The notes under the pieces: generated by a model
What the model saw: the letters and a program-made list of their open reading frames with translations, nothing else
The model's database searches: none
What the model was told of the DNA's origin: nothing
Made by a program: the position numbers and the translations under genes
Part shown: positions 1,119 to 51,914 of the stretch, one piece after another
Layout of the letters: each line of letters opens with the position of its first letter
Position numbering within the stretch: the stretch's first letter is position 1
Virus record (IMG/VR): IMGVR_UViG_3300045988_086792
Reading direction: 5' to 3' (one strand)
Source: a virus
Length of the DNA stretch: 51,914 bases

Positions 1119-2171
1119 ATGAGAACGAAAATCTTCGGGGGGGGTAAACTCTCCCATGTGGCGGCGGTAGTTCTGTGCTGCGCGATGCTGGCAGGGTGTT
1201 CTAGTATCAAAAATCCCGCAAAGGCTCCATTCAGCGCGAAAGACTGCGCAGGCATGACGAGCGAAGAGGTTATGACCGATTTGCAGGATGCCGGGTTTAA
1301 GAACATCACCGTTACAGATGAAGAGACTACCACAAAGAAAGATGATGGAATTGTGGTGGAGGTTTCCATTGATGGTGAGACGGACTATAAGAAAAATGCC
1401 AAGTGGGAAGATACCGTACCCGTCGAGATCACAGCATATAAGCTAAAGCAGCTCGACGTGACGATGGAAGTCTCTGTGAGCGGAGAAGAGGGAAAGCCGG
1501 TATTCATTGTTCAAACAAATCTGCCGGATGGTCTGAAGCTGGACTTTACGTTGAGAAGTAGCGGCGGATACGCAAAGGCGCAGGATGCCAGAATTGAAAA
1601 CGGAAAGGCGGAGAGCCAACCGTTTACTGACAATGGGGCGGCGCTGAAAGGCGATTATACCTTGACAGTCACCATGACATTGACCGGGCAAGGGTTCCTT
1701 GCTCCGATGGGAGCCATTGGCAATGGTGATGTTCTGGCCGGGGATTTGATAAGCACTGACAAAGACGGACGACCGTGCGCATCTACAGAGTATGCTTACT
1801 CTTCCAACTTTGAACCTGCAATCTCGGAAGAGGATATGGAGGCTCTGCTGGAAATGGTGCTTGCCAACGATTCTGACATGTCCTATGAAGTAACGCCCTA
1901 TGACGATGGATTTATTGTAGATACATGGAGTGATGGCGTTGCCGATGGTGCAGCTTACGCGAAGCTGGGCATTTCGCCTTATGAAGAAATGTGGAAGCAG
2001 TTGACCCAGAATGCAAAAAGCTGTTCCAGTTCCCTGATGGCGTTGATGTCGGAGAACGGCTACGGAAACAAGCACCTGCTGTTCAACTTGATAAATGACC
2101 AAGACCCGGACAAAACGGACAATCTGCTCACGATCTTGGACGGCGTTGTAACGTACAACTATGCCTCCTAA
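1119..2171 (+). CDS. Lipoprotein (moron-like, possible surface or exclusion function)
   Basis: Signal peptide with lipobox: MRTKIFGGGKLSHVAAVVLCCAMLAGC|SS. SD AAAGGAGA. GC is lower than the flanking DNA. Confidence 0.75.
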   Translation: MRTKIFGGGKLSHVAAVVLCCAMLAGCSSIKNPAKAPFSAKDCAGMTSEEVMTDLQDAGFKNITVTDEETTTKKDDGIVVEVSIDGETDYKKNAKWEDTVPVEITAYKLKQLDVTMEVSVSGEEGKPVFIVQTNLPDGLKLDFTLRSSGGYAKAQDARIENGKAESQPFTDNGAALKGDYTLTVTMTLTGQGFLAPMGAIGNGDVLAGDLISTDKDGRPCASTEYAYSSNFEPAISEEDMEALLEMVLANDSDMSYEVTPYDDGFIVDTWSDGVADGAAYAKLGISPYEEMWKQLTQNAKSCSSSLMALMSENGYGNKHLLFNLINDQDPDKTDNLLTILDGVVTYNYAS

Positions 2172-29068: not shown

Positions 29069-30304
29069 ATGAAAACTTATTGTAAACCGAAAGATGTTGA
29101 CATTGAGGATACCAATTTCAACATGGAAGCGGTGCATTGTGCATTCGGAAATGGAAAGCTCCGGCGGCGGGATTTCAGAACGGTTTTGACAAAGACCGGG
29201 AAAATCTCGGAACCGGAGCTGTTTTATGAGCGGAAAGAGCACAAGTGCCACAAGATCATTGATGCCATTGACGCGGTGGCTGAACAGGAAACGCAGAAGA
29301 TTCGGGACGAATGCCTGAACCTGAAACCGGTCCGGCAGTTCAAACGCATTGACGGAACCAAGATGAAAGAGCGAAATCTCTGTCAGGAGTCGCCGGAACA
29401 GCAGGTGCATGAATACATCCTCGTTCATGCACTTCAACCGCTGTTCCGCGCAAAGTTCCTGCCGGCCCAATTCGGGAGCATCCCGGGAAAAGGACAAGTG
29501 GCTGGAACCAGACTGATCGAGCGGATCATCCGAAAGAGAATCCTCGGAAAACTGGATGCGGTAAAAGGCGACGTGCATCATGCGTACCCATCCACCACGA
29601 CGCTCTGCGTCATAACGCTGCTGAAACGCGACGTCGGGAAAAACAAAAAGCTGATCTGGTATGCCGGGGCGGTGACAGAAAACTACCCGGACGGCGTTCT
29701 TCTGATTGGCGGATATTTCTCAACATGGGCGTTCAACTACATTATGAGCTACGTCCTGCGCTATCTGATGTCTCTGGTGCAGGTGCGCCGGGGCAGCGGG
29801 TCTAAGCTGGTGCGGGAAATCGTGTGCTATGCAGATGATTTTGTGCTTATCGGGCACGCTTCGCAGCTCATGAAAGCAATGAAGAAAGCAACGAGGTGGG
29901 CAAAGTCTGCGCTGGGGCTTGAGATCAAACGGGCATGGCAGGAAGTGCGGTTTGCATCTTTCGAGAAAGAAAAACAGGTGAAAGCCGCGCGGGCGGCGGG
30001 CAGCCATTACCGGACACCGGCGTTGGACATGATGGGATTTGCGGTACGCCGCACCTATACCATCGTCCGCAAAGGAGTATTCCGCAGAATCCGGCGGCAG
30101 CTGCTCCGCGCCGCTCGTGATCTTGCAACGCTTGGATTTGTTCCGCATTGGAGAGCATCCAAACTGACGGCTTACAATGGTTGGTTTACAAACAGCGACA
30201 GTACAAACCTTGAGGAAAAGTACGATGTCGAGAAAATCATGCGGGCGGCGCGATGGAGCGTTGCCCGCTGGTCTATGATCCAGAACAGGAGGAAAGCAGC
30301 ATGA
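29069..30304 (+). CDS. DGR reverse transcriptase
   Basis: 411 aa. YADDFVLIG (motif C). LLIGGYFSTWAFNY (IGxxxS-type motif). It starts 202 nt after the TR. Confidence 0.85.
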   Translation: MKTYCKPKDVDIEDTNFNMEAVHCAFGNGKLRRRDFRTVLTKTGKISEPELFYERKEHKCHKIIDAIDAVAEQETQKIRDECLNLKPVRQFKRIDGTKMKERNLCQESPEQQVHEYILVHALQPLFRAKFLPAQFGSIPGKGQVAGTRLIERIIRKRILGKLDAVKGDVHHAYPSTTTLCVITLLKRDVGKNKKLIWYAGAVTENYPDGVLLIGGYFSTWAFNYIMSYVLRYLMSLVQVRRGSGSKLVREIVCYADDFVLIGHASQLMKAMKKATRWAKSALGLEIKRAWQEVRFASFEKEKQVKAARAAGSHYRTPALDMMGFAVRRTYTIVRKGVFRRIRRQLLRAARDLATLGFVPHWRASKLTAYNGWFTNSDSTNLEEKYDVEKIMRAARWSVARWSMIQNRRKAA

Positions 30305-35140: not shown

Positions 35141-35479
35141 ATGACCAAAGAAGAAGCTATCAAGATGTTCCTTGATGATGGAGCGGCTGAACTGTCCGTA
35201 AAAGCTGAACAGGGGGGGCACGTCACGACGGAACTTCGCGGAGAAGTTCATAAACTGGGCTGGATGGTAGCGAAAGCAGCCAACGGGATTTTCTCCGAAA
35301 TCAAAGATGCGCGTATCGTGGAAGCGCTGGACCTTGCGATTACGAAGACCATTCACGAGATGGCGGCGCACCGCATCGCGCAGATCAAGAAAACGGACAC
35401 GCCTTTTGACCTGACTGTGGAGATGAGTGCTGTTCCGTTCAACGTGAACGACATCATTAAAACGATTCTCGGAAAGTAA
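35141..35479 (+). CDS. Hypothetical protein
   Basis: 112 aa from ATG 35141 (35132 is also possible). SD AAAGGA. Confidence 0.5.
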   Translation: MTKEEAIKMFLDDGAAELSVKAEQGGHVTTELRGEVHKLGWMVAKAANGIFSEIKDARIVEALDLAITKTIHEMAAHRIAQIKKTDTPFDLTVEMSAVPFNVNDIIKTILGK

Positions 35480-36226: not shown

Positions 36227-36237
36227 TTCTTGAAGAA

Positions 36238-36299
36238 GCCGCCCGGTAGAAAATCGGCGGACAAGCGTTGTCTTGTGTTGTAACCGGGCGGTTTTATAT
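36238..36299 (+). terminator. Terminator-like long hairpin plus TTTTATAT
   Basis: CCGCCCGGT (36239-47) pairs with ACCGGGCGG (36283-91), followed by TTTTATAT. Confidence 0.5.
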
Positions 36300-36368
36300 G
36301 GCGCGGGGCGGATGGACTACTGGTAACGGTCCGCTCGCCGGAAGCGGGGTCAAACCCCGTCCGTGCCG
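36300..36368 (+). ncRNA. tRNA-like minihelix A
   Basis: GGCGCGG pairs with CCGTGCC (one G-U). T-arm-like GCGGG-GTCAAAC-CCCGT. Internal stem GCGGA/TCCGC. No D-arm or anticodon-arm geometry. Confidence 0.35.
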
Positions 36369-36622
36369 CTTGTTGCATGGGCATCATGGAAGCTGGTGCG
36401 GTTTTGCGTATATTTTACGCACCAACAGGGCGAAAGAGTGCCGTATGGCAGCGCTCCTCCTAACGCCGCAAGCCGGTGGAAAACCGTGCTGCTCCTAGCC
36501 AAGTCGCACCCAACATGACGGCAACGGAAGCCGAAAGGGTGCGCCGCCGCGTGAGCGAAGAAACGCCTTGTCCAACTCGCCCAAGACAAAGGCGAGAGGT
36601 CTGGTTTGGTAGACTGGACCGC

Positions 36623-36657
36623 CCGCCGCGTTACTCTCTGACGCGGCGGCTTTATAT
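36623..36657 (+). terminator. Terminator-like hairpin plus CTTTATAT
   Basis: CCGCCGCG-(11 nt)-CGCGGCGG followed by CTTTATAT. Confidence 0.5.
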
Positions 36658-36731
36658 GCGGGTGCATAAGGCTGTTGCCTGTCTATGATTCCCCATCAAC
36701 AGGCAAGCCGGTTCGATACCGGCCACCCGTG
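36658..36731 (+). ncRNA. tRNA-like minihelix C
   Basis: 73 nt plus a discriminator. GCGGGTG pairs with CACCCGT. Perfect T-arm GCCGG-TTCGATA-CCGGC. An 8-bp hairpin TTGCCTGT/ACAGGCAA replaces the anticodon arm. Confidence 0.45.
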
Positions 36732-36757
36732 CAAGAAAATAAAAAGGAGACGGAAAA

Positions 36758-37083: not shown

Positions 37084-38711
37084 GTGATTCACCTTGGAGA
37101 TATTACGAAAATCTGCGGCGACCAGATAGAACCGGTGAATTGCATCACATTCGGAAGCCCTTGCCAAGACCTTTCCATTGCTGGCCGCAGAGCTGGTCTT
37201 GCAGGTGAACGGTCGGGACTTTTCATGGAAGCGATTCGGATCATAAAAGAAATGAGGGCAAAAACGAATGGAATGTATCCAACTTTCGCTATTTGGGAGA
37301 ATGTCCCCGGAGCTTTCAGCTCTAACAGCGGAGAAGATTTCCGCGCAGTGCTGGAAGAACTTGCCCGCGTGGAACAACCAGACGCTTCAATTCCTCGACT
37401 TGCGGGGGGGGGCAGCGTTGGAAACGAGCAGGGACAATCATCGGAGACGGATGGAGTTTGGCTTGGCGACAGATTGATGCTCAATATTGGGGAGTCCCCC
37501 AGCGCCGCAAAAGAATCGCTCTTGTCGTGGATTTTGCAGGTGGACGCGCCGGAGAAATATTATTTGAGCGCGAGAGCCTGCCGGGGCATCCTGACCAGAG
37601 CATCCCGACGTGGAAAGAAGCTGCCGAAACTGCTGGAAACTGCGTTGCTGGAAATGATCGAGTGGTGGGAGAACGAAGTTTCTGCATCAGCGGAAACACC
37701 GTTGACCGAACCACAAACCAAAATGGAACAGGCGTGAAAGAAAATGCTGCTTTTACGGTGAATACGGTTGACCGTCATGCGGTGGCCTACACGTTGAAAA
37801 TCCGTTCGGGGTGCGCCGGAGGCGGAAAGGGCGCATTGGTGCAGACAGAAAAAGTCGGGACGCTATCGACACTCCAAGATCAGACTCTTTTTCAACCGGT
37901 CGTTTTTGACGCACGGGGCAACGGAGATGGGAAGATAGCTCCGACCATTACCGGGGACCATGAAAGCAGAATCACGGATTACACCGCCGTTGCAGTTGAT
38001 TTGTATAACGGCGCTGTGACTGGCGACAAAACTGCATCCATTACTTGCAGGAGCATCGGGTCACATTCTGGGCCGCAGGTGGTGGAGCAAAAAACTTTTG
38101 CAGAACAATCATACAGCAGTTTCAAAATGGAAGAAACGAGCGGAACAATCAAAGGCTGCGGTGGAGGCACTGGATATAGTGGAGAATGCTTAATTGCAGA
38201 AAAGAATTGCCTGACTCCGTGGGATTCGCAAGGACGAAGAGTCTATGACGAAAACGGAAAATTTCCATCTCTTCAGGCACGAGAAAAAGCCGGGGGAAAT
38301 CAGCAAACAGTGTTGACAGAAATAGCGCCGATGGAGAAGATGATTCGATGGATCGTGCGCAGGTTGACCCCGACAGAATGTGAACGTCTGCAAGGATACC
38401 CGGATGGCTGGACGGACATCGGAGAATGGACGGACACCAAAGGGAAAAGGCATAAACCAGCAGACACTCCGCGCTATAAGGCGCTGGGCAACAGCATTGC
38501 GCTTCCGCAATGGTTCTGGATTGCCCAGAAAATGAAACAATATCTTCCAGCAGGTGCAACGCTGGGCAGTCTGTTTGACGGCATCGGCGGTTTTCCTCTA
38601 GTGTGGGAGACTACATACGGGAAAGGGACTGCCCGGTGGGCATCGGAAATCGAAGAATTTCCTATTGCCGTGACAAAGAAATGGTTTGCAGATGAGGAAT
38701 CGTTGAAATGA
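37084..38711 (+). CDS. DNA (cytosine-5) methyltransferase, circularly permuted motif order, out of frame at a G9 tract
   Basis: The first frame has GSPCQ (IV) and WENVPG (VI). After G9 the 37458 frame has AQYWGVPQRRKR (VIII), RRLTPTECERLQGYPDGW (IX), YKALGNS (X), then SLFDGIGGF (I) and WASEIEEF (II) at the C-terminus. One extra G gives a single frame of about 540 codons. The start is uncertain (GTG 37084 or ATG 36973). Confidence 0.75.
37404..37412 (+). repeat. Poly-G tract (G9) inside the C5-methyltransferase gene
   Basis: CTTGC-GGGGGGGGG-CAGC. The frame changes exactly here. G10 or G7 would be in frame. Confidence 0.9.
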
Positions 38712-39244
38712 GAAAAAATGTACTGCCGAAAGTATCAGTGACTTTGAGCTGCATTGCCCTTGGACTGGCGATTTTTAACGGAGCCGCCAAAGATACACGG
38801 ATTCAGCAGCTCGAACAGGACCGGGATATTTACAAGAGCCGATTCCAGAATTGGTCGGAACGTGCAATGCAGGACGAAGAAACGATAGAACGTCTCCAAG
38901 AAGAAGTTCTGCCGGAGGGGATGACTGCTGAGTATGCGGGAGAATTTCTCTGCACGTCGTATTGCACGGAGAAATATCCGCATATCTGCGGAACTGGAAC
39001 CGGAATTACAGCCAGCGGCGTTCCGGTAACGGCAGACCTGACGGTGGCGGCAGATCAAGGCGTGTTCCCGTTTGGAACGATTCTGTATATTGAGGGCATC
39101 GGCATTCGGGTGGTTCAAGACCGGGGCGCAGATATTCAAGGACGGCACCTTGACGTTGCAGTTGCCGGAACACATGAGGATGCACTGAACTGGGATGGTT
39201 ATGGAGAACATCGGGTGTGGATTGTTAAAGAGGAAAACAAATGA
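38708..39244 (+). CDS. Membrane-anchored 3D-domain protein (cell-wall hydrolase-like)
   Basis: N-terminal TM, a coiled coil, then TSYCTE...GTGTGITASGVPV...TVAADQGVFPFGTILYIEG...VQDRGADIQG..LDV is a 3D/MltA-like barrel pattern. Confidence 0.6.
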   Translation: MRKNVLPKVSVTLSCIALGLAIFNGAAKDTRIQQLEQDRDIYKSRFQNWSERAMQDEETIERLQEEVLPEGMTAEYAGEFLCTSYCTEKYPHICGTGTGITASGVPVTADLTVAADQGVFPFGTILYIEGIGIRVVQDRGADIQGRHLDVAVAGTHEDALNWDGYGEHRVWIVKEENK

Positions 39245-39543
39245 GCACTTTTGATAAAATGCTGGAAGATATTCTTGCCCAATACCGGCGCATAGGGTTT
39301 CAGACACAAGTTTGGAGACAAAAAGAGAATGAGGAAGTATTTGTAACGCTGAGACTGGGACGGGTTAAAGCCAGTATGATAATTTCCATGAATGAACAGG
39401 AAAATTTTCACAGGCTATGTGATTCGCAGAGTCAAAAAGAATGGTTGGAAAGTATGACAAAGCAGCTTGAATGCAAGATTACAGAGTATTATGCAAGTAG
39501 CGTGGAGATACGCTATGCGAGAATGCAGGAGGATGGAGAATGA
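39241..39543 (+). CDS. Hypothetical protein
   Basis: 100 aa with coupled start and stop. Confidence 0.5.
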   Translation: MSTFDKMLEDILAQYRRIGFQTQVWRQKENEEVFVTLRLGRVKASMIISMNEQENFHRLCDSQSQKEWLESMTKQLECKITEYYASSVEIRYARMQEDGE

Positions 39544-40104
39544 AATTGCCCGACAAGAAATATTCCGTGATCTACGCCGATCCACCGTGGAGCTACCGCC
39601 AGCATGGAACCGGGCCGAAAAGTCGGGGGAATGCGGCACAGCACTATCACACGATGACGACAGAAGACATCTGCGCGCTACCCATTCGCCAGCTTGCGGG
39701 GGGGGGGGCAAGGATGTGTGCTGTTCATGTGGGCGACATTTCCGCAAGTGGCCGATGCGCTCCGAGTTATGGAAGCGTGGGGCTTTACATACAAAACAGC
39801 GGCTTTCGTCTGGGTGAAGAAAAACCGGAAAAGCAACACTCCATTTTGGGGTATGGGCGCATATACCAGAGCAAACGCGGAAATCTGCTTACTTGGTGTG
39901 ACACCGGATTTCAGACCGGCAGCGCAGATCAAGAGCCATGCAGTGCATCAAATTATCGAAGCACCAATTATGGCTCATAGCGTAAAGCCAGATGAAACCC
40001 GCCGCAGGATTGTTCAGCTACTTGGAGATGTTCCCAGAATAGAGCTGTTTGCTCGTCAATGTGTGCCCGGATGGGATGCTTGGGGCGACGAGATAACAGA
40101 GTGA
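39540..40104 (+). CDS. N6-adenine DNA methyltransferase, MT-A70-like, out of frame at a G10 tract
   Basis: YSVIYADPPWSY (DPPW) lies before the tract. CVLFMWATFPQVADALRVMEAWGFTYKTAAFVWVK follows it in the +1 frame. Removing one G gives a single frame of about 187 codons. Confidence 0.75.
39698..39707 (+). repeat. Poly-G tract (G10) inside the MT-A70-like methyltransferase gene
   Basis: CTTGC-GGGGGGGGGG-CAAGG, the same flanks as the G9 tract. G9 would be in frame. Confidence 0.9.
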
Positions 40105-41139: not shown

Positions 41140-41478
41140 ATGGATGTTGTGATGAATGATGTTCGGCTGCTGGTCAAAAAAGAACTGGCAGCGGCGAACA
41201 AAAAGTTTCCGATGTTTGCCAGTGCCCACGAGGGCTGGGCGGTGATCCGGGAAGAGCTGCAAGAAGTGAAAGACGACCACTATATGCTGGAACAGTATCT
41301 CGAAAATCGTCTTTGGAATGAAGTTCGGTACAACAACGAAATTCCGAAAGAGGATTTGAAAGAAGCGCAGCATTGGGCTGTTCACATGGCGGTTGAAGCA
41401 ATCCAGACGGCGGCGATGATCTGCAAACTGGAACGGAGCCAGAGGCGTTGGAAAAGAAAGGCTGGAAAATCGGCATGA
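41140..41478 (+). CDS. Hypothetical helical protein (weak MazG-like NTP-pyrophosphohydrolase resemblance)
   Basis: 112 aa. FASAHEGWAVIREELQEVKDD resembles MazG-type helix motifs. The resemblance is weak. Confidence 0.4.
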   Translation: MDVVMNDVRLLVKKELAAANKKFPMFASAHEGWAVIREELQEVKDDHYMLEQYLENRLWNEVRYNNEIPKEDLKEAQHWAVHMAVEAIQTAAMICKLERSQRRWKRKAGKSA

Positions 41479-46850: not shown

Positions 46851-47011
46851 GTAAATACCTCCAAAGTGATGTGCATTTGCTCGTCCCGGTAGGGATTCGA
46901 GTTTTTAGATTTGCCGGTCTGGGTATATAGATACCGGGGCTGGCGGCGGGTGTTGCCCTTGCGGGCTGGGATGGGGCTGCTTTACGGTGCAACCCCGTCA
47001 GAGTATCCGTT
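46851..47011 (-). repeat. Structured leader repeat R1
   Basis: Core at 46968-47010 (plus strand GGGATGGGGCTGC-TTTACGGT-GCAACCCCGT...AGTATCC), with compensatory changes relative to R2-R5. Shares the CCCGGTAGGG...GCCCTTGCGGGCTGGG block with R2. Confidence 0.65.
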
Positions 47012-47923
47012 TTACTGCTGGCCGTCCAGAACCTCCATGACGCGGTGAGCGGCATACTTACCATTGTCGTTGAGCTGGCGCTGCCAAGCTCCCTGCGACG
47101 GGGCCCATTTGAAACCGTTCCGCTTGAGAAGCGTTCTGGTTTCATCATCGGGCTTGCCGTCGAAAAGAAACTGGACACGCATTGCTTCTGTATTCTCCCG
47201 GTAGGTGTAGCCGTCGTGCTCATCTTCCACAGGCTGTGCAGCTTTGGCCGCTTCGAGCTGGGCAATGCGTTCCTTTACTCGCTTGATGGTCGCATTGCTG
47301 TTTTGCAGCTCATAGGACGGGAAAAGACAGCCGTAGACCGAAAGCGGGGAACCGCTGGCGAAAGCATGGCCGTTTTCAAGCCAGTTTCGGGTCTTTTCCG
47401 TGATGCCGGGGCAATCGTCAAGTGTTTTGTGCTTGCGGTAGTAGGCATTCGCGTCTTTCATGGTCTGGTGTGCGGTTTGGAGCTGGTCGAGCTTGGCGTG
47501 GAGATAATCCAGCACTTCGGGATCATCAGACTTGACCGCGAACGTGTGCGCCCGCTTGAGCATCTGCAAATAGTGGTCAGCCTTGCGGAAATTCTCCCGG
47601 TTCGCGTCCCACGCTGCTACCTGCTTCTCTTTCTTGTGAACAGGGAAGTTTGCAGGGCCGCAGATGAGCACAGACGGGCAGCGGGTCCCAATCTCGTTTT
47701 CGCGGTTGATTGCTTCGGCCAGAACGGCACAGTACCGGTTGTACAGCCATTCGGCCCGCTCCCGCTGGTCTGCGGTGGCGCACTTGGGCTTGACCTGCTC
47801 AAGAATTGCGGCAGCCTTGGCGCATTGGGCGTTGTAGCTGGCGGTGGCGCTGCCCTCCACATAGTCAGAGAAAGAAGAAAGTTCTTTCGCAATGCGGGCG
47901 GCGGATTCGTTGATAATAGCCAT
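47012..47923 (-). CDS. DUF3560-like protein (island gene c)
   Basis: 303 aa from ATG 47923. C-terminus RVQFLFDGKPDDETRTLLKRNGFKWAPSQGAWQRQL is typical of DUF3560 proteins of plasmids and ICEs. Confidence 0.6.
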   Translation of the reverse strand: MAIINESAARIAKELSSFSDYVEGSATASYNAQCAKAAAILEQVKPKCATADQRERAEWLYNRYCAVLAEAINRENEIGTRCPSVLICGPANFPVHKKEKQVAAWDANRENFRKADHYLQMLKRAHTFAVKSDDPEVLDYLHAKLDQLQTAHQTMKDANAYYRKHKTLDDCPGITEKTRNWLENGHAFASGSPLSVYGCLFPSYELQNSNATIKRVKERIAQLEAAKAAQPVEDEHDGYTYRENTEAMRVQFLFDGKPDDETRTLLKRNGFKWAPSQGAWQRQLNDNGKYAAHRVMEVLDGQQ

Positions 47924-48065
47924 GATAAAAGCCTCCAATATTCAGTTCTCAAAATGCGTTCCGCTTTCCCCGGTAGGGGTCCGCGTTTTCGTGCTGCCCT
48001 TGCGGGCTGGGGCGGGGTCGCTTTACGGTGCGGCCCTGCTGAGGTATCCGGGGCGGTTACTGCCG
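47924..48065 (-). repeat. Structured leader repeat R2
   Basis: Core at 48009-48052 (GCGGGGTCGC-TTTACGGT-GCGGCCCTGC, then TGAGGTATCCGG). Box TATTCAGTTCTCAAA at 47939-53 next to the SD. Confidence 0.8.
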
Positions 48066-48578
48066 CTAAAGAATGGAACTGATCCATGTAGAGGGGTCGG
48101 AGTAGTCAACCAACTTGGCGTAATGTTTGCATTGAACAAGGCTGTACGCATACTGCATGGTGTAGGAGCCGGTGTAAAATTCGCGGCTGCAAAACTCTTC
48201 GACGTTGTGACGGGTGTGCCATGCAAGCGGCGGCAGGACGTTCAAGGCGTCGTCGAACTGCTGTTCGGTGATCTCCTGCATGGGGTCGGAGAGCAGGCGC
48301 TCCCGCTGGGCGTTCAGAAAGTCGCCGTAGGTCATGGTGGAGAATGTGCGGGCCTTTGCTGCTTCAAGGCATTCCGTCCAATACTCTTTCCGGTCGTCAT
48401 ACCTGCCAGAGTTCAGAATATTTTCGTACCGGCGGACATCATCGGCGGCGCTGTCCTGAGCGGCTTTCAAGACCTCTTCCGGGGTGCGGGGGCCGCGCCA
48501 GCTCGACGCGGTGAAATCGTAGAGGGTGCAGGTGAATGTATCCACCACGACAAGCTCCATTTTCTCTTGTTCAGTCAT
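48066..48578 (-). CDS. Hypothetical protein (island gene d)
   Basis: 170 aa from ATG 48578 (SD AAAGGAG). The upstream in-frame extension is the type-2 repeat, not coding. Confidence 0.55.
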   Translation of the reverse strand: MTEQEKMELVVVDTFTCTLYDFTASSWRGPRTPEEVLKAAQDSAADDVRRYENILNSGRYDDRKEYWTECLEAAKARTFSTMTYGDFLNAQRERLLSDPMQEITEQQFDDALNVLPPLAWHTRHNVEEFCSREFYTGSYTMQYAYSLVQCKHYAKLVDYSDPSTWISSIL

Positions 48579-48606
48579 GTTGCAAAACTCCTTTCGTGGG
48601 CTGTAA

Positions 48607-48679
48607 CCCATGAGCGCCCGCCCCGGCGGGGGCGGCTGGGCTTGCACCAGCGGCGGCGGGATGCCGTCGGCCTTGCGGG
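48607..48679 (-). repeat. Type-2 intergenic repeat, copy 1
   Basis: About 73 nt, near-identical to 51416-51489 (one 1-2 nt indel in a hairpin loop and one substitution). Contains the hairpin CCGCCCC-loop-GGGGCGG. Confidence 0.85.
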
Positions 48680-49264
48680 TCATTCGGAAAACATCTTTTT
48701 GCAGAGCGCTTCTACCTCTTCAGTGGGCTTGATAGGGCACATGACCATTGAAATGGTCGGATCGCTGGCACAGACGGCGTACACCGGCGCATAGCCGGAC
48801 GCTTTGCCGTAGTAGATGAATTGTGCCGGGTTTACCATGCTGTCATAGATGACGTTCACCAAGATGGGCGCGGGGCCGACGTGAAAAAGCCTTGCAAGAC
48901 CGCTTTTCTTCTTGCCGGTGGGGATGTCCTGCAAAAACGGGGTGCGCTGTACAGTCTTTTCCTTGCAGGCGGCGCTTTTGAAGATGTCCACCAGATCGGG
49001 GGCGTGTTCGTCCACCTCAAAACCGTACTGGGCGGAAACGATGGTCACGCCGTCGGCGGGGCACTCGCGGAGCGTTACGGGCTGGATGATGTCAGGGTAG
49101 AGCATCGCAGGGAGCTTGAACGCGGTGTGCGGGGTCATGATGTAAACCAGATCGCCCCGGCGGGTGACGCGGATGCCGCGCTGATCCTTGGCCTGCTCCT
49201 TGAGGTGGGATTGAATCGCCTTGATGTTCAGGCCGAAAAGGGTAAAATCGTTAGAAAGTTTCAT
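48680..49264 (-). CDS. Hypothetical protein (island gene e)
   Basis: 194 aa. SD AGGAGG. Confidence 0.6.
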   Translation of the reverse strand: MKLSNDFTLFGLNIKAIQSHLKEQAKDQRGIRVTRRGDLVYIMTPHTAFKLPAMLYPDIIQPVTLRECPADGVTIVSAQYGFEVDEHAPDLVDIFKSAACKEKTVQRTPFLQDIPTGKKKSGLARLFHVGPAPILVNVIYDSMVNPAQFIYYGKASGYAPVYAVCASDPTISMVMCPIKPTEEVEALCKKMFSE

Positions 49265-49365
49265 GATATGGTCCTCCTGTTATTCAGTTTTCAAATGGTC
49301 CCGGCGGTGTGCCGGGTGTGGGGCGGGGCCGCTTTTCTGGGTGCGGCCCTGCTGGGGTATCCCAT
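49265..49365 (-). repeat. Structured leader repeat R3
   Basis: Core at 49320-49363. Hairpin CCCGGCGGTGTGCCGGG at 49300-16. Box TATTCAGTTTTCAAA at 49281-95. Confidence 0.8.
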
Positions 49366-50205
49366 TCAGCAGAAAGAAATCTGCTCACAGTATGCCGGGG
49401 CGCTGTCTGCGCTGGGCGCGGGGTCTGCTTTGGGCTGGGGCTTTGCTTCGGGTTCCGGCGCGGGAGCAGGTGCGGCGGCTTGTGGGGCTGTCTCTGCGGC
49501 TTTCCGGGTTTCGGTAGCCTTGCGCCACTTTGCCAGCGCTTTCGCTTGGGCGGGGCGGTCCTCTTCGGACACGGCCATAAATTCGTGCATCGCTTTCCGC
49601 TCTGCTCTCTTGAGATCGGCCGCGCTGGGCGCTGCTTTCTGCTTGGGGGCCGGGGCAGGCGGTTCGGCGGGTTTCGGCTCACTCTGGGGCTTGTCCTGCT
49701 GGGCGGCAGCCTTTGCGGCTTTGCGCTGGTCGGCCAGCATTTTGTTATAGGCCCGGATTTCGTCGAGACTCTGAAACCGTCCGGCGGGCTTGGGCTGCTG
49801 CTTCTCGACCTGCCCACGGTGGAACAGGTGAGCTTTTGCCAGATAGTAATAGCCTTTATCCTGTTCGGCGGCGGCTTTGGTCAGCTCGTCAGCATCCGGC
49901 GCGGGCTGCTTCTTCTTGTCGTTGAACTTCCACAGTTCGCAGGTGATCGCGGCTTTTTCGCCGCGCTTGACGGTCAAGCCGTCCCTGTGCCACTCTGCCC
50001 AAGTGTGAAATAGGCCAGCACACAACAGGGATTCAGCGCTTTCGATGGGGTCCGGGGTGTTGCCGTTGTCATCGGGAACAAGTTCCAGACCGGCGGCGAT
50101 GCCCTGCACCTGTTCGGCGGTATAGAACCGGCTCACCAGATCGTGACGCTGGGCGGAATCGTAGTTGCTGCAAACTTCGTTGAAGATGATTTGCTCGTTG
50201 GTCAT
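49366..50205 (-). CDS. Protein with weak ArdC-N-like (ssDNA-binding, antirestriction-type) N-terminus and Ala/Pro/Lys-rich tail (island gene f)
   Basis: 279 aa. FHTWAEWHRDGLTVKRGEKA resembles the W..G..V.KGEKG motif of ArdC N-domains. The C-terminal half is low-complexity. Confidence 0.35.
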   Translation of the reverse strand: MTNEQIIFNEVCSNYDSAQRHDLVSRFYTAEQVQGIAAGLELVPDDNGNTPDPIESAESLLCAGLFHTWAEWHRDGLTVKRGEKAAITCELWKFNDKKKQPAPDADELTKAAAEQDKGYYYLAKAHLFHRGQVEKQQPKPAGRFQSLDEIRAYNKMLADQRKAAKAAAQQDKPQSEPKPAEPPAPAPKQKAAPSAADLKRAERKAMHEFMAVSEEDRPAQAKALAKWRKATETRKAAETAPQAAAPAPAPEPEAKPQPKADPAPSADSAPAYCEQISFC

Positions 50206-50304
50206 GGTAAAACCTCCTGTATTCAGTTCTCAAATTGTCCCGGCGGTGTGCCGGGTGTGGGGCGGGGTCGCTTTATCCGGTGCGGCCCTGCTAAGGCATC
50301 CGGG
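50206..50304 (-). repeat. Structured leader repeat R4
   Basis: Core at 50259-50304. Hairpin CCCGGCGGTGTGCCGGG at 50239-55. Box TATTCAGTTCTCAAA at 50220-34. Confidence 0.8.
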
Positions 50305-50502
50305 TCAATGATATTTCTTCTTCAGCCGCTCGACCGCTGCGGACGCTTCGCGGTGGGTGTCACAGTGGCAGCTTTCGTAAACGATGAAAGCGGACATTGT
50401 TACACCGGGGCAGCCGGTCGGGTTTGGCTCTCCGCCTTTGTGGGCATACCCGGCGGAAACTGTGAAACCGCCGCGGCTGGAGGGGGTGATTTTGTACTCC
50501 AT
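50305..50502 (-). CDS. Small hypothetical protein (island gene g)
   Basis: 65 aa. SD AAAGGAG. Confidence 0.5.
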   Translation of the reverse strand: MEYKITPSSRGGFTVSAGYAHKGGEPNPTGCPGVTMSAFIVYESCHCDTHREASAAVERLKKKYH

Positions 50503-50520
50503 GCGGTGCGCTCCTTTCGG

Positions 50521-50892
50521 TCAGTCCTCTTCATCGGGGCAGCAGCTCCAAAGAACGTCGGCAAAATAGTCATCGTCGAAGTCGTCCGGCGTTCCGTTGC
50601 TGTTCATGATGAGGATGCAGCGTTGACCCACGGCGGGCAGGTCGTCGCGGCGGCTGATCTCTGCAAGTGCATCAGCGCAGATGATCCAGCGTTCCCCGTC
50701 GTCGTCGGTGATCCAGTAAACAAGATCGTCGTCAGCGGTAAAGACACGCTCAACCTCTGCCCCGGCGATGTACAGACCGAACGCGCCGGGGGTGCGGTTG
50801 ACATTGGCGGCGCTGGCTTTCGGGGTAGAACCTGCCAGCAGGGCGGCGGACAGCGCCAGCGCGGCGGCTGTGGTGGTGATTTTCTTCTTCAT
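50521..50892 (-). CDS. Secreted acidic protein (island gene h)
   Basis: 123 aa. Sec signal MKKKITTTAAALALSAALLAGSTPKASA|AN. SD AAAGGAGAAG. Confidence 0.6.
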   Translation of the reverse strand: MKKKITTTAAALALSAALLAGSTPKASAANVNRTPGAFGLYIAGAEVERVFTADDDLVYWITDDDGERWIICADALAEISRRDDLPAVGQRCILIMNSNGTPDDFDDDYFADVLWSCCPDEED

Positions 50893-51006
50893 GGCTGCTT
50901 CTCCTTTCGGGTTGTGGGTTTGCGTTCGGATGATCTCCCGGCTGTTGTCGGGGTAGTGGGACGGGGTCGCTTTACGGTGCGGCCCTGCTGAGGTGTCCGG
51001 CGGTGG
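50893..51006 (-). repeat. Structured leader repeat R5
   Basis: Core at 50958-51003 (ACGGGGTCGC-TTTACGGT-GCGGCCCTGC, then TGAGGTGTCCGG). Confidence 0.75.
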
Positions 51007-51192
51007 TCATTCAAGCGCCGCCAGTGCGGCGGTTAGACCTGCTTCAAAAAGTTTTTCGTTCTCTTCGTCGGTTTTGCTCAGATCGTTGGAGTAGTTGCAG
51101 GCGGGCCACAGCGGGCAGTTGCACGGCCCGCGCTGCGTCCAGTTCCGGCGGCAAAACTCTTGCTCAATCCGCTTTTCGGTTTCGGCTGTCAT
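51007..51192 (-). CDS. Small Cys-rich protein (island gene i)
   Basis: 61 aa. CRRNWTQRGPCNCPLWPAC. SD AAAGGAGA. Confidence 0.5.
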   Translation of the reverse strand: MTAETEKRIEQEFCRRNWTQRGPCNCPLWPACNYSNDLSKTDEENEKLFEAGLTAALAALE

Positions 51193-51415
51193 GTTCTGTG
51201 TCTCCTTTCGCTGCTTTGAATTTTCCCGGCGGTGTGCCGGGGGTGCTTGTTGAGCCGGATTTTAGCCGGTCCTTTCTGCCCCGTCAAGGCCCCGTTTTCC
51301 GTTCCCCTTGTCCCCCCTACGGGGGACAGGGGAAGAAAATTTGCACCAAAAAACGCTTGATGTTTTGGCGATTTTCACGGCGCGGGGGAGTATAGAGGGG
51401 GTATAGGAGTAAAAC
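51193..51415 (-). repeat. Leader region R6 (partial member of the repeat family plus a long hairpin)
   Basis: Hairpin CCCGGCGGTGTGCCGGG at 51224-40. A 12-bp-stem hairpin CCCCTTGTCCCCC/GGGGGACAGGGG at about 51305-35. It lacks the R1-R5 core. Confidence 0.5.
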
Positions 51416-51489
51416 CCCATGAGCGCCCGCCCCGGCTTGGGGCGGCTGGGCTTGCACCAGCGGCGGTGGGATGCCGTCGGCCTTGCGGG
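51416..51489 (-). repeat. Type-2 intergenic repeat, copy 2
   Basis: See 48607-48679. Confidence 0.85.
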
Positions 51490-51573
51490 GCGGGCTTGCT
51501 TTCACGTCCTTTCTGTGGTAAAATGGCTTACAAGATGGACCGTCGAAAATTCATCTTGCAGCCTGTCACCTGC

Positions 51574-51769: not shown

Positions 51770-51843
51770 GCATGACGGAATGCAATCTACTTTTTGCACA
51801 AAAACATGACGGAATGCTTGTGCAATTTTGCATGGCGGAATGC
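51748..51843 (+). promoter_or_regulatory. Operator/iteron array: four direct 13-bp repeats CATG(A/G)CGGAATGC
   Basis: Copies at 51748-60, 51771-83, 51805-17 and 51831-43. The last two recur at 32-44 and 58-70 in the overlap. They sit within or next to both divergent promoters. Confidence 0.8.
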
Positions 51844-51914
51844 CGCTTGATTTGCTATAATATAATAAACGCGCGCGAAAAGAGGTGATATGATGCCGAT
51901 TTCGGAAAAAAAGA
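51774..51914. repeat. Terminal redundancy, right copy (identical to 1-141)
   Basis: Same 141 nt as the window start. It re-includes the rightward promoter and the first codons of the 117..338 gene. Confidence 0.95.

Follow-up and report, generated by a model that had tools for sequence, protein, structure and literature searches.

Why would both DNA methyltransferase genes of a single phage lose their reading frame at a long run of G's, with one of the runs a base too short and the other a base too long? The question is raised by IMG/VR virus record IMGVR_UViG_3300045988_086792, a stretch of 51,914 nucleotides (nt) that is referred to here, at its full length, as the window, and in which a C5-cytosine methyltransferase gene and an MT-A70-family N6-adenine-type methyltransferase gene are each interrupted at a poly-G tract (Table 1). 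The original prediction, made from the letters of the window, was that these tracts are slipped-strand, phase-variable switches, and the comparison of related loci has borne this out: near-identical genes differ only in tract length, control sequences are stable, out-of-frame alleles are otherwise intact and the states are scattered among relatives. On such comparative grounds, it is very likely that both poly-G runs are hypermutable slipped-strand contingency loci that switch two phage methyltransferases.

The first tract is as it had been described, i.e., G9 in the setting CTTGC-G9-CAGC (37404-37412), with the frame changing there and one additional G making the C5 gene continuous. The second had been read as G10 (39698-39707) and as restored by G9, which was a miscount, since the run comprises 11 G's (39698-39708) and is restored by G10; its direction, one G too many, had been called correctly. 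The in-frame state is, therefore, common to the two genes, as at G10 they have an identical 17-mer, CTT GCG GGG GGG GGG CA, that encodes L-A-G-G-G-Q, and relative to which tract 1 is one G short and tract 2 one G long. Within each flank context, the frame offset tracks run length modulo 3. The common flank that had been pointed out is real in the form of this 17-mer, but its CTTGC is partly coincidental, as the flanks of the C5 relatives differ, with cgacCtgc, acctccga or ttcgggta upstream of the run. A common origin of the tracts, or recombination between the identical CTTGC-G10-CA 17-mers, was ruled out, the flank identity being lineage-specific. Under a first-order Markov model of the window, 0.44 runs of at least nine G's are expected (with a probability of 0.07 for two or more) and 0.027 runs of at least 11, and the G runs by themselves are moderately unlikely to have arisen by chance. 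The two methyltransferase genes make up 4.2% of the genome; it is the location of both tracts inside these, the only methyltransferase genes of the phage, and, above all, their behavior in relatives that mark them as non-random.

The enzymes that are restored at G10 have the features expected of their families. The C5 protein, which then reads ...RLAGGGQRWKRAGTIIGDGW...QYWGVPQRRKR, matches PF00145 (Pfam, E = 5e-32) and has motifs I (FxGxG), IV (PCQ), VI (ENV), VIII (QxRxR), IX and X, all in permuted order: IV-VI, the tract, VIII, the target-recognition region, IX-X and finally I-II. Alignment to M.HhaI placed motif IV in residues 5-89, VIII in 128-148, IX in 421-444 and I in 491-511, whereas in the G9 state the motifs are spread over open reading frames (ORFs) none of which has them all. 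The same permuted order was found in most IMG/VR relatives and in FP_Toutatis, which, with Lelie, is the nearest named relative of the window (both are Faecalibacterium prophages, with ~77% nucleotide identity over the region of interest), and matches of the C5 protein in the PDB include plant DRM-type permuted enzymes. Toutatis has an ATG at the codon where the C5 gene of the window has its GTG (37084). The MT-A70 protein, in its G10 reading ...QLAGGGQGCVLFMWATFP, matches PF05063 (MT-A70, E = 1.6e-25) over profile positions 1-172 of 172, has its DPPW catalytic motif at residues 14-17 and, when aligned to the MT-A70 structure 7f4r, has the tract-encoded GGG as a three-residue insertion before the strand LFMWA.

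The evidence that carries the argument came from relatives. IMG/VR searches with the two frame-corrected proteins gave 80 loci per protein, and, with those added from GenBank phages, GTDB genomes and public assemblies, about 170 related loci in total were compared. Nearly all C5 relatives, across 48-97% protein identity and with several different flanks, have a G run at the homologous codon, and their frame offset follows run length modulo 3 exactly. The 70 non-redundant C5 alleles extend from G4 to G14, with 36 in frame and 34 out. In a group of 13 loci with C5 genes of 99.6% identity or more, several of them 100% identical outside the tract, the run was G7, 7, 8, 8, 8, 9, 9, 9, 10, 10, 11, 12 and 14, and this group takes in two cultured phages, Toutatis (G9, annotated as two coding sequences (CDS)) and Lelie (G14). 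Similarly, within the phage species of the window, the tract was found as G8 adjoining an N (contig L003), G9 (the window), G10 (four contigs from different runs, L167-L170, each with the intact C5 ORF of 542 amino acids (aa)) and G12 (L171). In the acctccga clade of the gene tree, the tract length differed between nearest neighbors in 19 of 29 cases, and the states of the C5 tract showed no phylogenetic clustering (p = 0.59).

The MT-A70 tract, ~158 nt into its gene, behaves alike, its homologous site ranging from G4 to G13 in relatives. Clusters of at least 97% identity had run lengths of 12, 9, 10, 8, 12 and 10; of 9, 10, 10, 9, 8, 10, 10, 8 and 7; and of 10 and 13; clusters with G4-G6 or interrupted runs were uniform and in frame. 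Among non-redundant alleles, 26 of 27 with six G's or fewer were in frame, as were 13 of 37 with at least eight, the latter being close to the one third expected of a random walk. A contig of the species of the window ends inside a run of at least 13 G's at this site. Contigs with both genes include all four combinations of in-frame and out-of-frame alleles, which upholds, at the level of the reading frame, the earlier claim that two such switches allow four states, and the near-identical loci L132 and L138 differ at both tracts.

Could such variation be the product of sequencing or assembly error at homopolymers, the true tracts all being in frame? Long G runs are error-prone, there is an N and a gap at the tract in L003, contig L171 ends inside a G run, and the window itself resembles a short-read assembly by reason of a 141-nt terminal overlap. 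However, the two tracts of the window err in opposite directions within one contig, one short and one long, which is the very point that had been raised against a homopolymer miscall; lengths from G5 to G14 are found among genes that are otherwise identical, in many independent samples and in two cultured phages; and four independent runs agree on G10 for the species of the window. Moreover, other homopolymers of the same genes are stable. In the Toutatis cluster, where 38 homopolymers of at least five bases were compared, the tract differed in 8 of 9 comparisons and the others in 1 of ~260, and in the cluster of the window the only runs that varied were the C5 tract, a third G tract (G7, at 35212), one A6 and one G5. 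Many relatives have a second G7 run ~268 nt downstream of the C5 tract (the window is without it), and this was G7 in 34 of 35 loci, an invariance that excludes a generic G7-to-G8 miscall for the 19 alleles that are G8 at the first tract. With length differences between near-identical genomes far exceeding those of control sequence, we consider error an extremely unlikely source of the variation.

A second alternative is that these are dispensable genes in decay, which break first at their G runs. About half of the alleles are out of frame, and the in-frame share of long tracts is near or below the neutral one third, both of which would suit pseudogenes. Yet 37 of the 38 out-of-frame C5 alleles have no other lesion, i.e., they are intact (at least 400 aa) after correction of the tract only, and an ORF of 150 aa or more was obtained from 83 of 84 MT-A70 loci. 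Across the motifs, synonymous sites are far more diverse than the amino acids, states flip between nearest neighbors, and the tract has been kept at the same codon position across 50-97% protein identity. Tracts that are fixed and out of frame in all relatives would have pointed to decay, and this is not what was found, in-frame and out-of-frame alleles coexisting in species-level clusters. Furthermore, such tracts have arisen convergently in three methyltransferase families. All told, decay is a very unlikely explanation.

The third family came to light in another Faecalibacterium phage, Lagaffe (FP_Lagaffe MG711461, locus L179), where a G7 run (record positions 41195-41201) breaks a Dam-type N6-adenine methyltransferase. 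The annotated CDS of Lagaffe starts just after this run, and G8 would restore ...DWGGYCVFCNPPYGR. An independent re-sequencing of the Lagaffe prophage reported the insertion of a single G (PMC11792537), and this G is exactly at the G7 run, so that the frame of the methyltransferase is restored. Thus, with the C5, MT-A70 and Dam-type enzymes, three unrelated methyltransferase families of Faecalibacterium phages carry poly-G runs.

Translation of every frame downstream of the C5 tract brought a further feature to light. At every locus, a second frame is open for 90-130 codons there and the third is full of stops, and the second-frame peptide is conserved as ...W(L/H)GDS.TLNIGE.P......LLS.IL....P.KYYLSA.AC.GILTRASRRGK.LP.LL..ALL..IEWW. 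A search of 5.8 billion proteins with this peptide returned 468 matches, mostly of 135-186 aa and with no Pfam domain, that start M(E/D)CIQLSLFGK... The N-terminal part of this protein is encoded upstream of the tract, also in the +1 frame of the methyltransferase, from an ATG that in the window is at 37268. The embedded gene, here called X, overlaps motifs VI-VIII of the C5 gene for ~470 nt and is in frame at the methyltransferase's own tract lengths. In the window, X starts MECIQLSLFG..., contains ...YYLSARACRGILTRASRRGKKLP... and is divided by G9 into 37268-37477 and the frame 37413-37737. In many contigs, gene callers predict X as a gene of its own.

Several lines of evidence point to X being a coding sequence. 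Synonymous diversity in the methyltransferase frame is 0.19 in the overlap (codons 62-217) as against 0.46 outside it (Mann-Whitney p = 1e-24), and it reaches its minimum, 0.07, where the amino-acid diversity of the methyltransferase peaks. Of 59 unique sequences, 58 retain the ATG of X, including those in which the methyltransferase has a different residue (AAT, CAT or GAT), and the Arg codon upstream is AGG in 57 of the 59, which produces a GAGG Shine-Dalgarno sequence nine bases before the ATG. By tblastn, X is present in 137 GenBank phages, and in all eight examined (Toutatis, Streptococcus Javan105, P1 dmt, Enterobacter CobraSix, Vibrio CP-T1, Mycobacterium Lucky2013, Caulobacter DMCA and Pseudanabaena Pan4) it occupies the +1 frame relative to the CDS annotated for the C5 methyltransferase and is open for 135-221 codons. 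This also rules out that X is simply a domain that canonical methyltransferases have in their own frame. Conservation of the X frame extends to phages of Bacillota, Pseudomonadota (including P1 dmt), Actinomycetota and Cyanobacteriota. A comparison of the window with P1 over YYLS...AL gave 16 of 30 positions conserved in the X frame, as against 4 of 21 in the methyltransferase frame of the same DNA. Altogether, the hallmarks of an overlapping gene were found (a long alternative frame, lowered synonymous variation, start signals of its own and extra conservation), from which its translation is predicted.

A profile search with X reached 4,056 clusters at E<=1e-3; there was no sequence match for X in Pfam, NCBIfam, PHROG or the PDB, and no similarity to Vsr. 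The AlphaFold model of X was poor (predicted local distance difference test (pLDDT) 46), with only a C-terminal helical hairpin (residues 102-142) being confident. A second embedded gene, in the MT-A70 gene, was suggested by a long out-of-frame ORF after its tract and was rejected, as the same analysis of synonymous diversity gave no dip there and the alternative frames are short in relatives. In the literature that we searched, no overlapping gene was described for C5 methyltransferases.

The position of the C5 tract within this dual-coding segment would mean that its length determines more than whether the methyltransferase is made. At G10, methyltransferase and X would both be intact; at G9, as in the window, the product would be a chimera that begins as the methyltransferase and ends as X (MTase-N::X-C); and at G8 or G11 the first 48 aa of X would continue into the C-terminal part of the methyltransferase. 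The earlier statement that both genes are OFF in the window is, accordingly, right in that both are out of frame, and has to be qualified in that the C5 locus at G9 encodes a chimera and is not plainly OFF; gp14 of Toutatis is a chimera of the same kind. It seems to us somewhat more probable than the contrary that the C5 tract selects among three sets of products, and that X is an obligate partner of the methyltransferase that is switched together with it. The role of X would be, e.g., that of a regulator or that of countering methyl-dependent restriction. That X bears a coding signature is shown by the sequences compared; the functions of X and of the chimeras we infer at most.

Other fusions of the two frames exist. 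The second G7 run lies at the 3' end of the X overlap (e.g., L173 4588, L084), and a shift there fuses X to the part of the methyltransferase with the target-recognition region and motifs IX and X (P0122, P0124, L084, L173). In L084, and in a contig from a Faecalibacterium tardum isolate, the second run is G8, the methyltransferase is truncated and X is fused to its C-terminal half. Such X fusions were found in about one fifth of the best 148 representatives, and in none of the 148, bar one with an atypical motif order, did the C-terminal X motif follow motif VIII in one polypeptide, which likewise rules out X as an in-frame domain of the canonical enzymes. In the distant relative L178 (2660-4107), which has the canonical motif order and no homopolymer, motifs V-VIII are in a separate frame, and motifs I-IV and X plus the part with target recognition, IX and X are together in one frame. 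Relative to its relatives, L178 appears to be missing one base from an A-run at GGGAAAAG, and its X-fusion ORF of 368 aa recurs in five contigs.

Past the C5 tract, conserved protein is encoded in both of the frames that are not junk, and the ORFs on either side of the tract are intact in all alleles, as programmed recoding would also lead one to expect. RNA polymerase slippage or ribosomal frameshifting would then yield full-length enzyme, and possibly the products of the alternative frame, whatever the allele, with DNA length setting no more than the proportions of the products, and G8, one step from both productive frames, would be common on that account. G8 is indeed over-represented at the C5 tract (19 of the 37 alleles with at least eight G's), and long A/T runs are established sites of transcriptional slippage. 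A programmed site, however, is expected to have a fixed length and context, and here the runs go from G4 to G14 and the flanks vary; no conserved stimulatory element came to light, no search aimed at one having been made; slippage on bacterial G runs is poorly documented, and the MT-A70 gene behaves in the same way without a second coding frame. Because tract length and context are not conserved, recoding is unlikely as the main route of expression; leaky slippage on long runs might help to explain the excess of G8.

Some observations weigh against the tracts being contingency loci and deserve to be set out together. A simple ON/OFF model leaves the G8 excess at the C5 tract unexplained. The frequency of out-of-frame alleles (34/70 for C5, 25/71 for MT-A70) also fits a dispensable gene that drifts neutrally over short times. 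In the C5 gene, the second G7 run is almost constant, so run length alone is insufficient, and selection or sequence context must be invoked. Nearly all of the sequences compared are short-read assemblies, in which long G runs are prone to error. Lastly, the length variation is that seen between assembled genomes; switching within a population may be hinted at by the breaks in assembly at the tracts (L003, L171) and by the one-G difference between the two sequencings of Lagaffe, and we infer it along with the methylation phenotypes and the selective agent.

If the tracts are contingency loci, as we favor, slipped-strand mispairing would add or remove G's as the phage or prophage DNA is replicated, and each methyltransferase gene would move among three frame states, only G7, G10 or G13 giving the full-length enzyme. 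The Gly-Gly(-Gly) loop that the tract encodes would tolerate these changes of length, and the genes would be kept by selection even if single genomes are often out of frame. A phage population would then comprise particles with C5-methylated, N6-methylated, doubly methylated or unmethylated DNA. By analogy with the contingency locus of T2 agt, the most likely benefit would be bet-hedging across Faecalibacterium hosts, some of which would cut DNA that is unmethylated, by classical restriction-modification, and others DNA that is methylated, by methyl-dependent type IV restriction. An alternative benefit would be a lesser methylation of the lysogen's chromosome.

Switches of this type are well known in bacteria, where phasevarions include the Type III mod genes of Haemophilus and Neisseria, the poly-G/C methyltransferases of Helicobacter and Campylobacter cj0031. 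As in these, the repeat is within a methyltransferase ORF, slippage would switch the enzyme and there are several independent switches per genome. The differences are that the genes are phage-borne, encoding a permuted C5 enzyme and a small MT-A70 enzyme rather than chromosomal mod subunits, that the host is a Gram-positive gut commensal, and that the presumed beneficiary is the phage DNA and not a bacterial regulon. Circular permutation has precedents among C5 methyltransferases in M.BssHII and plant DRM2, and the window's enzyme, with motifs I-II after motif X, resembles them in this respect. Overlapping or split C5 arrangements are also known, i.e., the dcm-vsr overlap and the two-subunit M.AquI. 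As in dcm-vsr, a second gene overlaps the C5 gene out of frame, but for X the overlap is central to the gene, covering ~150 codons (motifs VI-VIII), and not confined to a few codons at its 3' end.

The closest phage precedent is the A-run in agt of T2/T4, in which reversible frameshifts switch DNA modification between sensitivity to TgvAB and to McrBC (bioRxiv 10.1101/2025.10.21.683753). The likenesses are a homopolymer in a phage DNA-modification gene and a trade-off between restriction types for modified and unmodified progeny. There, however, the run is poly-A, the gene encodes a glucosyltransferase, the phage is a virulent coliphage and experiments demonstrated the effect; here, the runs are poly-G (9-11), there are two methyltransferases and two or three switches per genome, the phage is a temperate-type Faecalibacterium phage, and the case is built on comparative genomics. 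Hypermutable poly-G tracts are also described for the receptor-binding genes of Campylobacter Fletchervirus phages (Sorensen et al. 2021, as related in bioRxiv 10.1101/2025.10.21.683753), and a poly-G was noted in the methylase gene of Bordetella phage BPP-1 (bioRxiv 10.1101/2025.10.21.683753). As in these phages, G7-G11 runs in phage ORFs would give rise to phenotypic subpopulations, and the BPP-1 gene is likewise that of a methylase. The Fletchervirus tracts differ in being in tail-fiber genes, with an effect on host range via adsorption, and that of BPP-1 was noted and never analyzed. In the literature searched, poly-G switching was not described for methyltransferases of Faecalibacterium or other gut phages.

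The feature is, then, a known type of switch in a new setting, and an overlapping gene that shares the switch is possibly the more novel aspect. Phase-variable methyltransferases have been known as bacterial devices, with phage contingency loci only just demonstrated in the T-even glucosyltransferase. If our reading is true, abundant human-gut phages of the key commensal Faecalibacterium use contingency switching, with two or three unrelated methyltransferase families switched at once, the practice is widespread across many independent metagenomes, and the methylation state of a phage population would be changeable and not fixed. This would matter for the prediction of host range, for the linking of phages to hosts by methylation in metagenomes and for annotation, the last because such genes are routinely split or called pseudogenes. 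If X is translated, there is an ancient overlapping gene in a widely annotated enzyme family, including dmt of phage P1, and it would serve as a test case for the co-regulation of overlapping genes.

Table 1. Poly-G tracts of the window and the genes in which they lie.
Feature	Position	Strand	Remarks
Poly-G tract 1	37404..37412	+	G9; within the C5 methyltransferase gene and embedded gene X, both in frame at G7, G10 or G13
C5-cytosine DNA methyltransferase, circularly permuted	37084..38711	+	GTG start; with one G added, continuous 542 aa
ORF as present at G9	37084..37737	+	217-aa chimera, with the methyltransferase at its N-terminus (motifs IV-VI) and X at its C-terminus
Embedded overlapping gene X	37268..37737	+	~156 aa at G10; +1 frame of the methyltransferase; split in the window by G9
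Poly-G tract 2	39698..39708	+	G11; within the MT-A70 methyltransferase gene; in frame at G10
MT-A70-family (DPPW) N6-adenine-type DNA methyltransferase	39540..40104	+	187 aa with one G removed
Third variable poly-G tract	35212..35218	+	G7; in a 112-aa ORF (35141-35479), function not assigned
G8 run, candidate fourth switch	1137..1144	+	In the signal-peptide region of a PASTA-domain lipoprotein ORF (1119-2171), MRTKIFGGGKLSH...LAGC

Two more G runs of the window may belong with these. Among near-identical phages, the third tract was G7 in the window, L003, L168, L170 and L171, G8 in L167 and G9 in L169. The candidate fourth switch encodes GGG; no variation was seen in it, as L175, the only relative found, likewise has an in-frame G8. 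The IMG/VR searches for relatives of these two runs gave one locus each.

As for the phage itself, the window has an exact direct repeat of 141 nt at its termini (1-141 and 51774-51914) and so corresponds to a circularly closed genome of 51,773 bp, the length of the overlap suggesting a short-read assembler with k=141. It encodes terminase, portal, major head, tape-measure and tail-fiber proteins, a reverse transcriptase, a radical-SAM protein and a transposase. The prophage Lelie is inducible (PMC11792537). A scan of public genome contigs found three loci only, one of which is the 53.9-kb contig of the F. tardum isolate mentioned above, in which both methyltransferase genes are out of frame (the C5 gene via the second tract); its presence in such an isolate supports the assignment of Faecalibacterium as host.

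Among the ORFs that adjoin the methyltransferase genes, Pfam matched a 3D domain and nothing else; the two enzymes may be orphans with no cognate restriction endonuclease beside them, unless a nuclease has gone unrecognized. Upstream of the methyltransferase module is a G+C-rich, apparently non-coding segment of ~530 nt (36230-36757), which had no tRNA match and no Rfam match at the gathering threshold. The reverse-transcriptase gene (29069-30304 on the plus strand, phrog_1423) is probably part of a diversity-generating retroelement, elements that have been reported in Faecalibacterium prophages (PMC11792537), and if so the phage combines a retroelement with poly-G switches. Finally, the minus strand from 46960 to 51493 has, above Rfam gathering thresholds, two twister-sister ribozymes (48601-48683 and 51410-51493) and five RAGATH-5 RNAs (46960-47010, 48001-48051, 49312-49364, 50251-50303 and 50950-51000), spaced at about one per gene.

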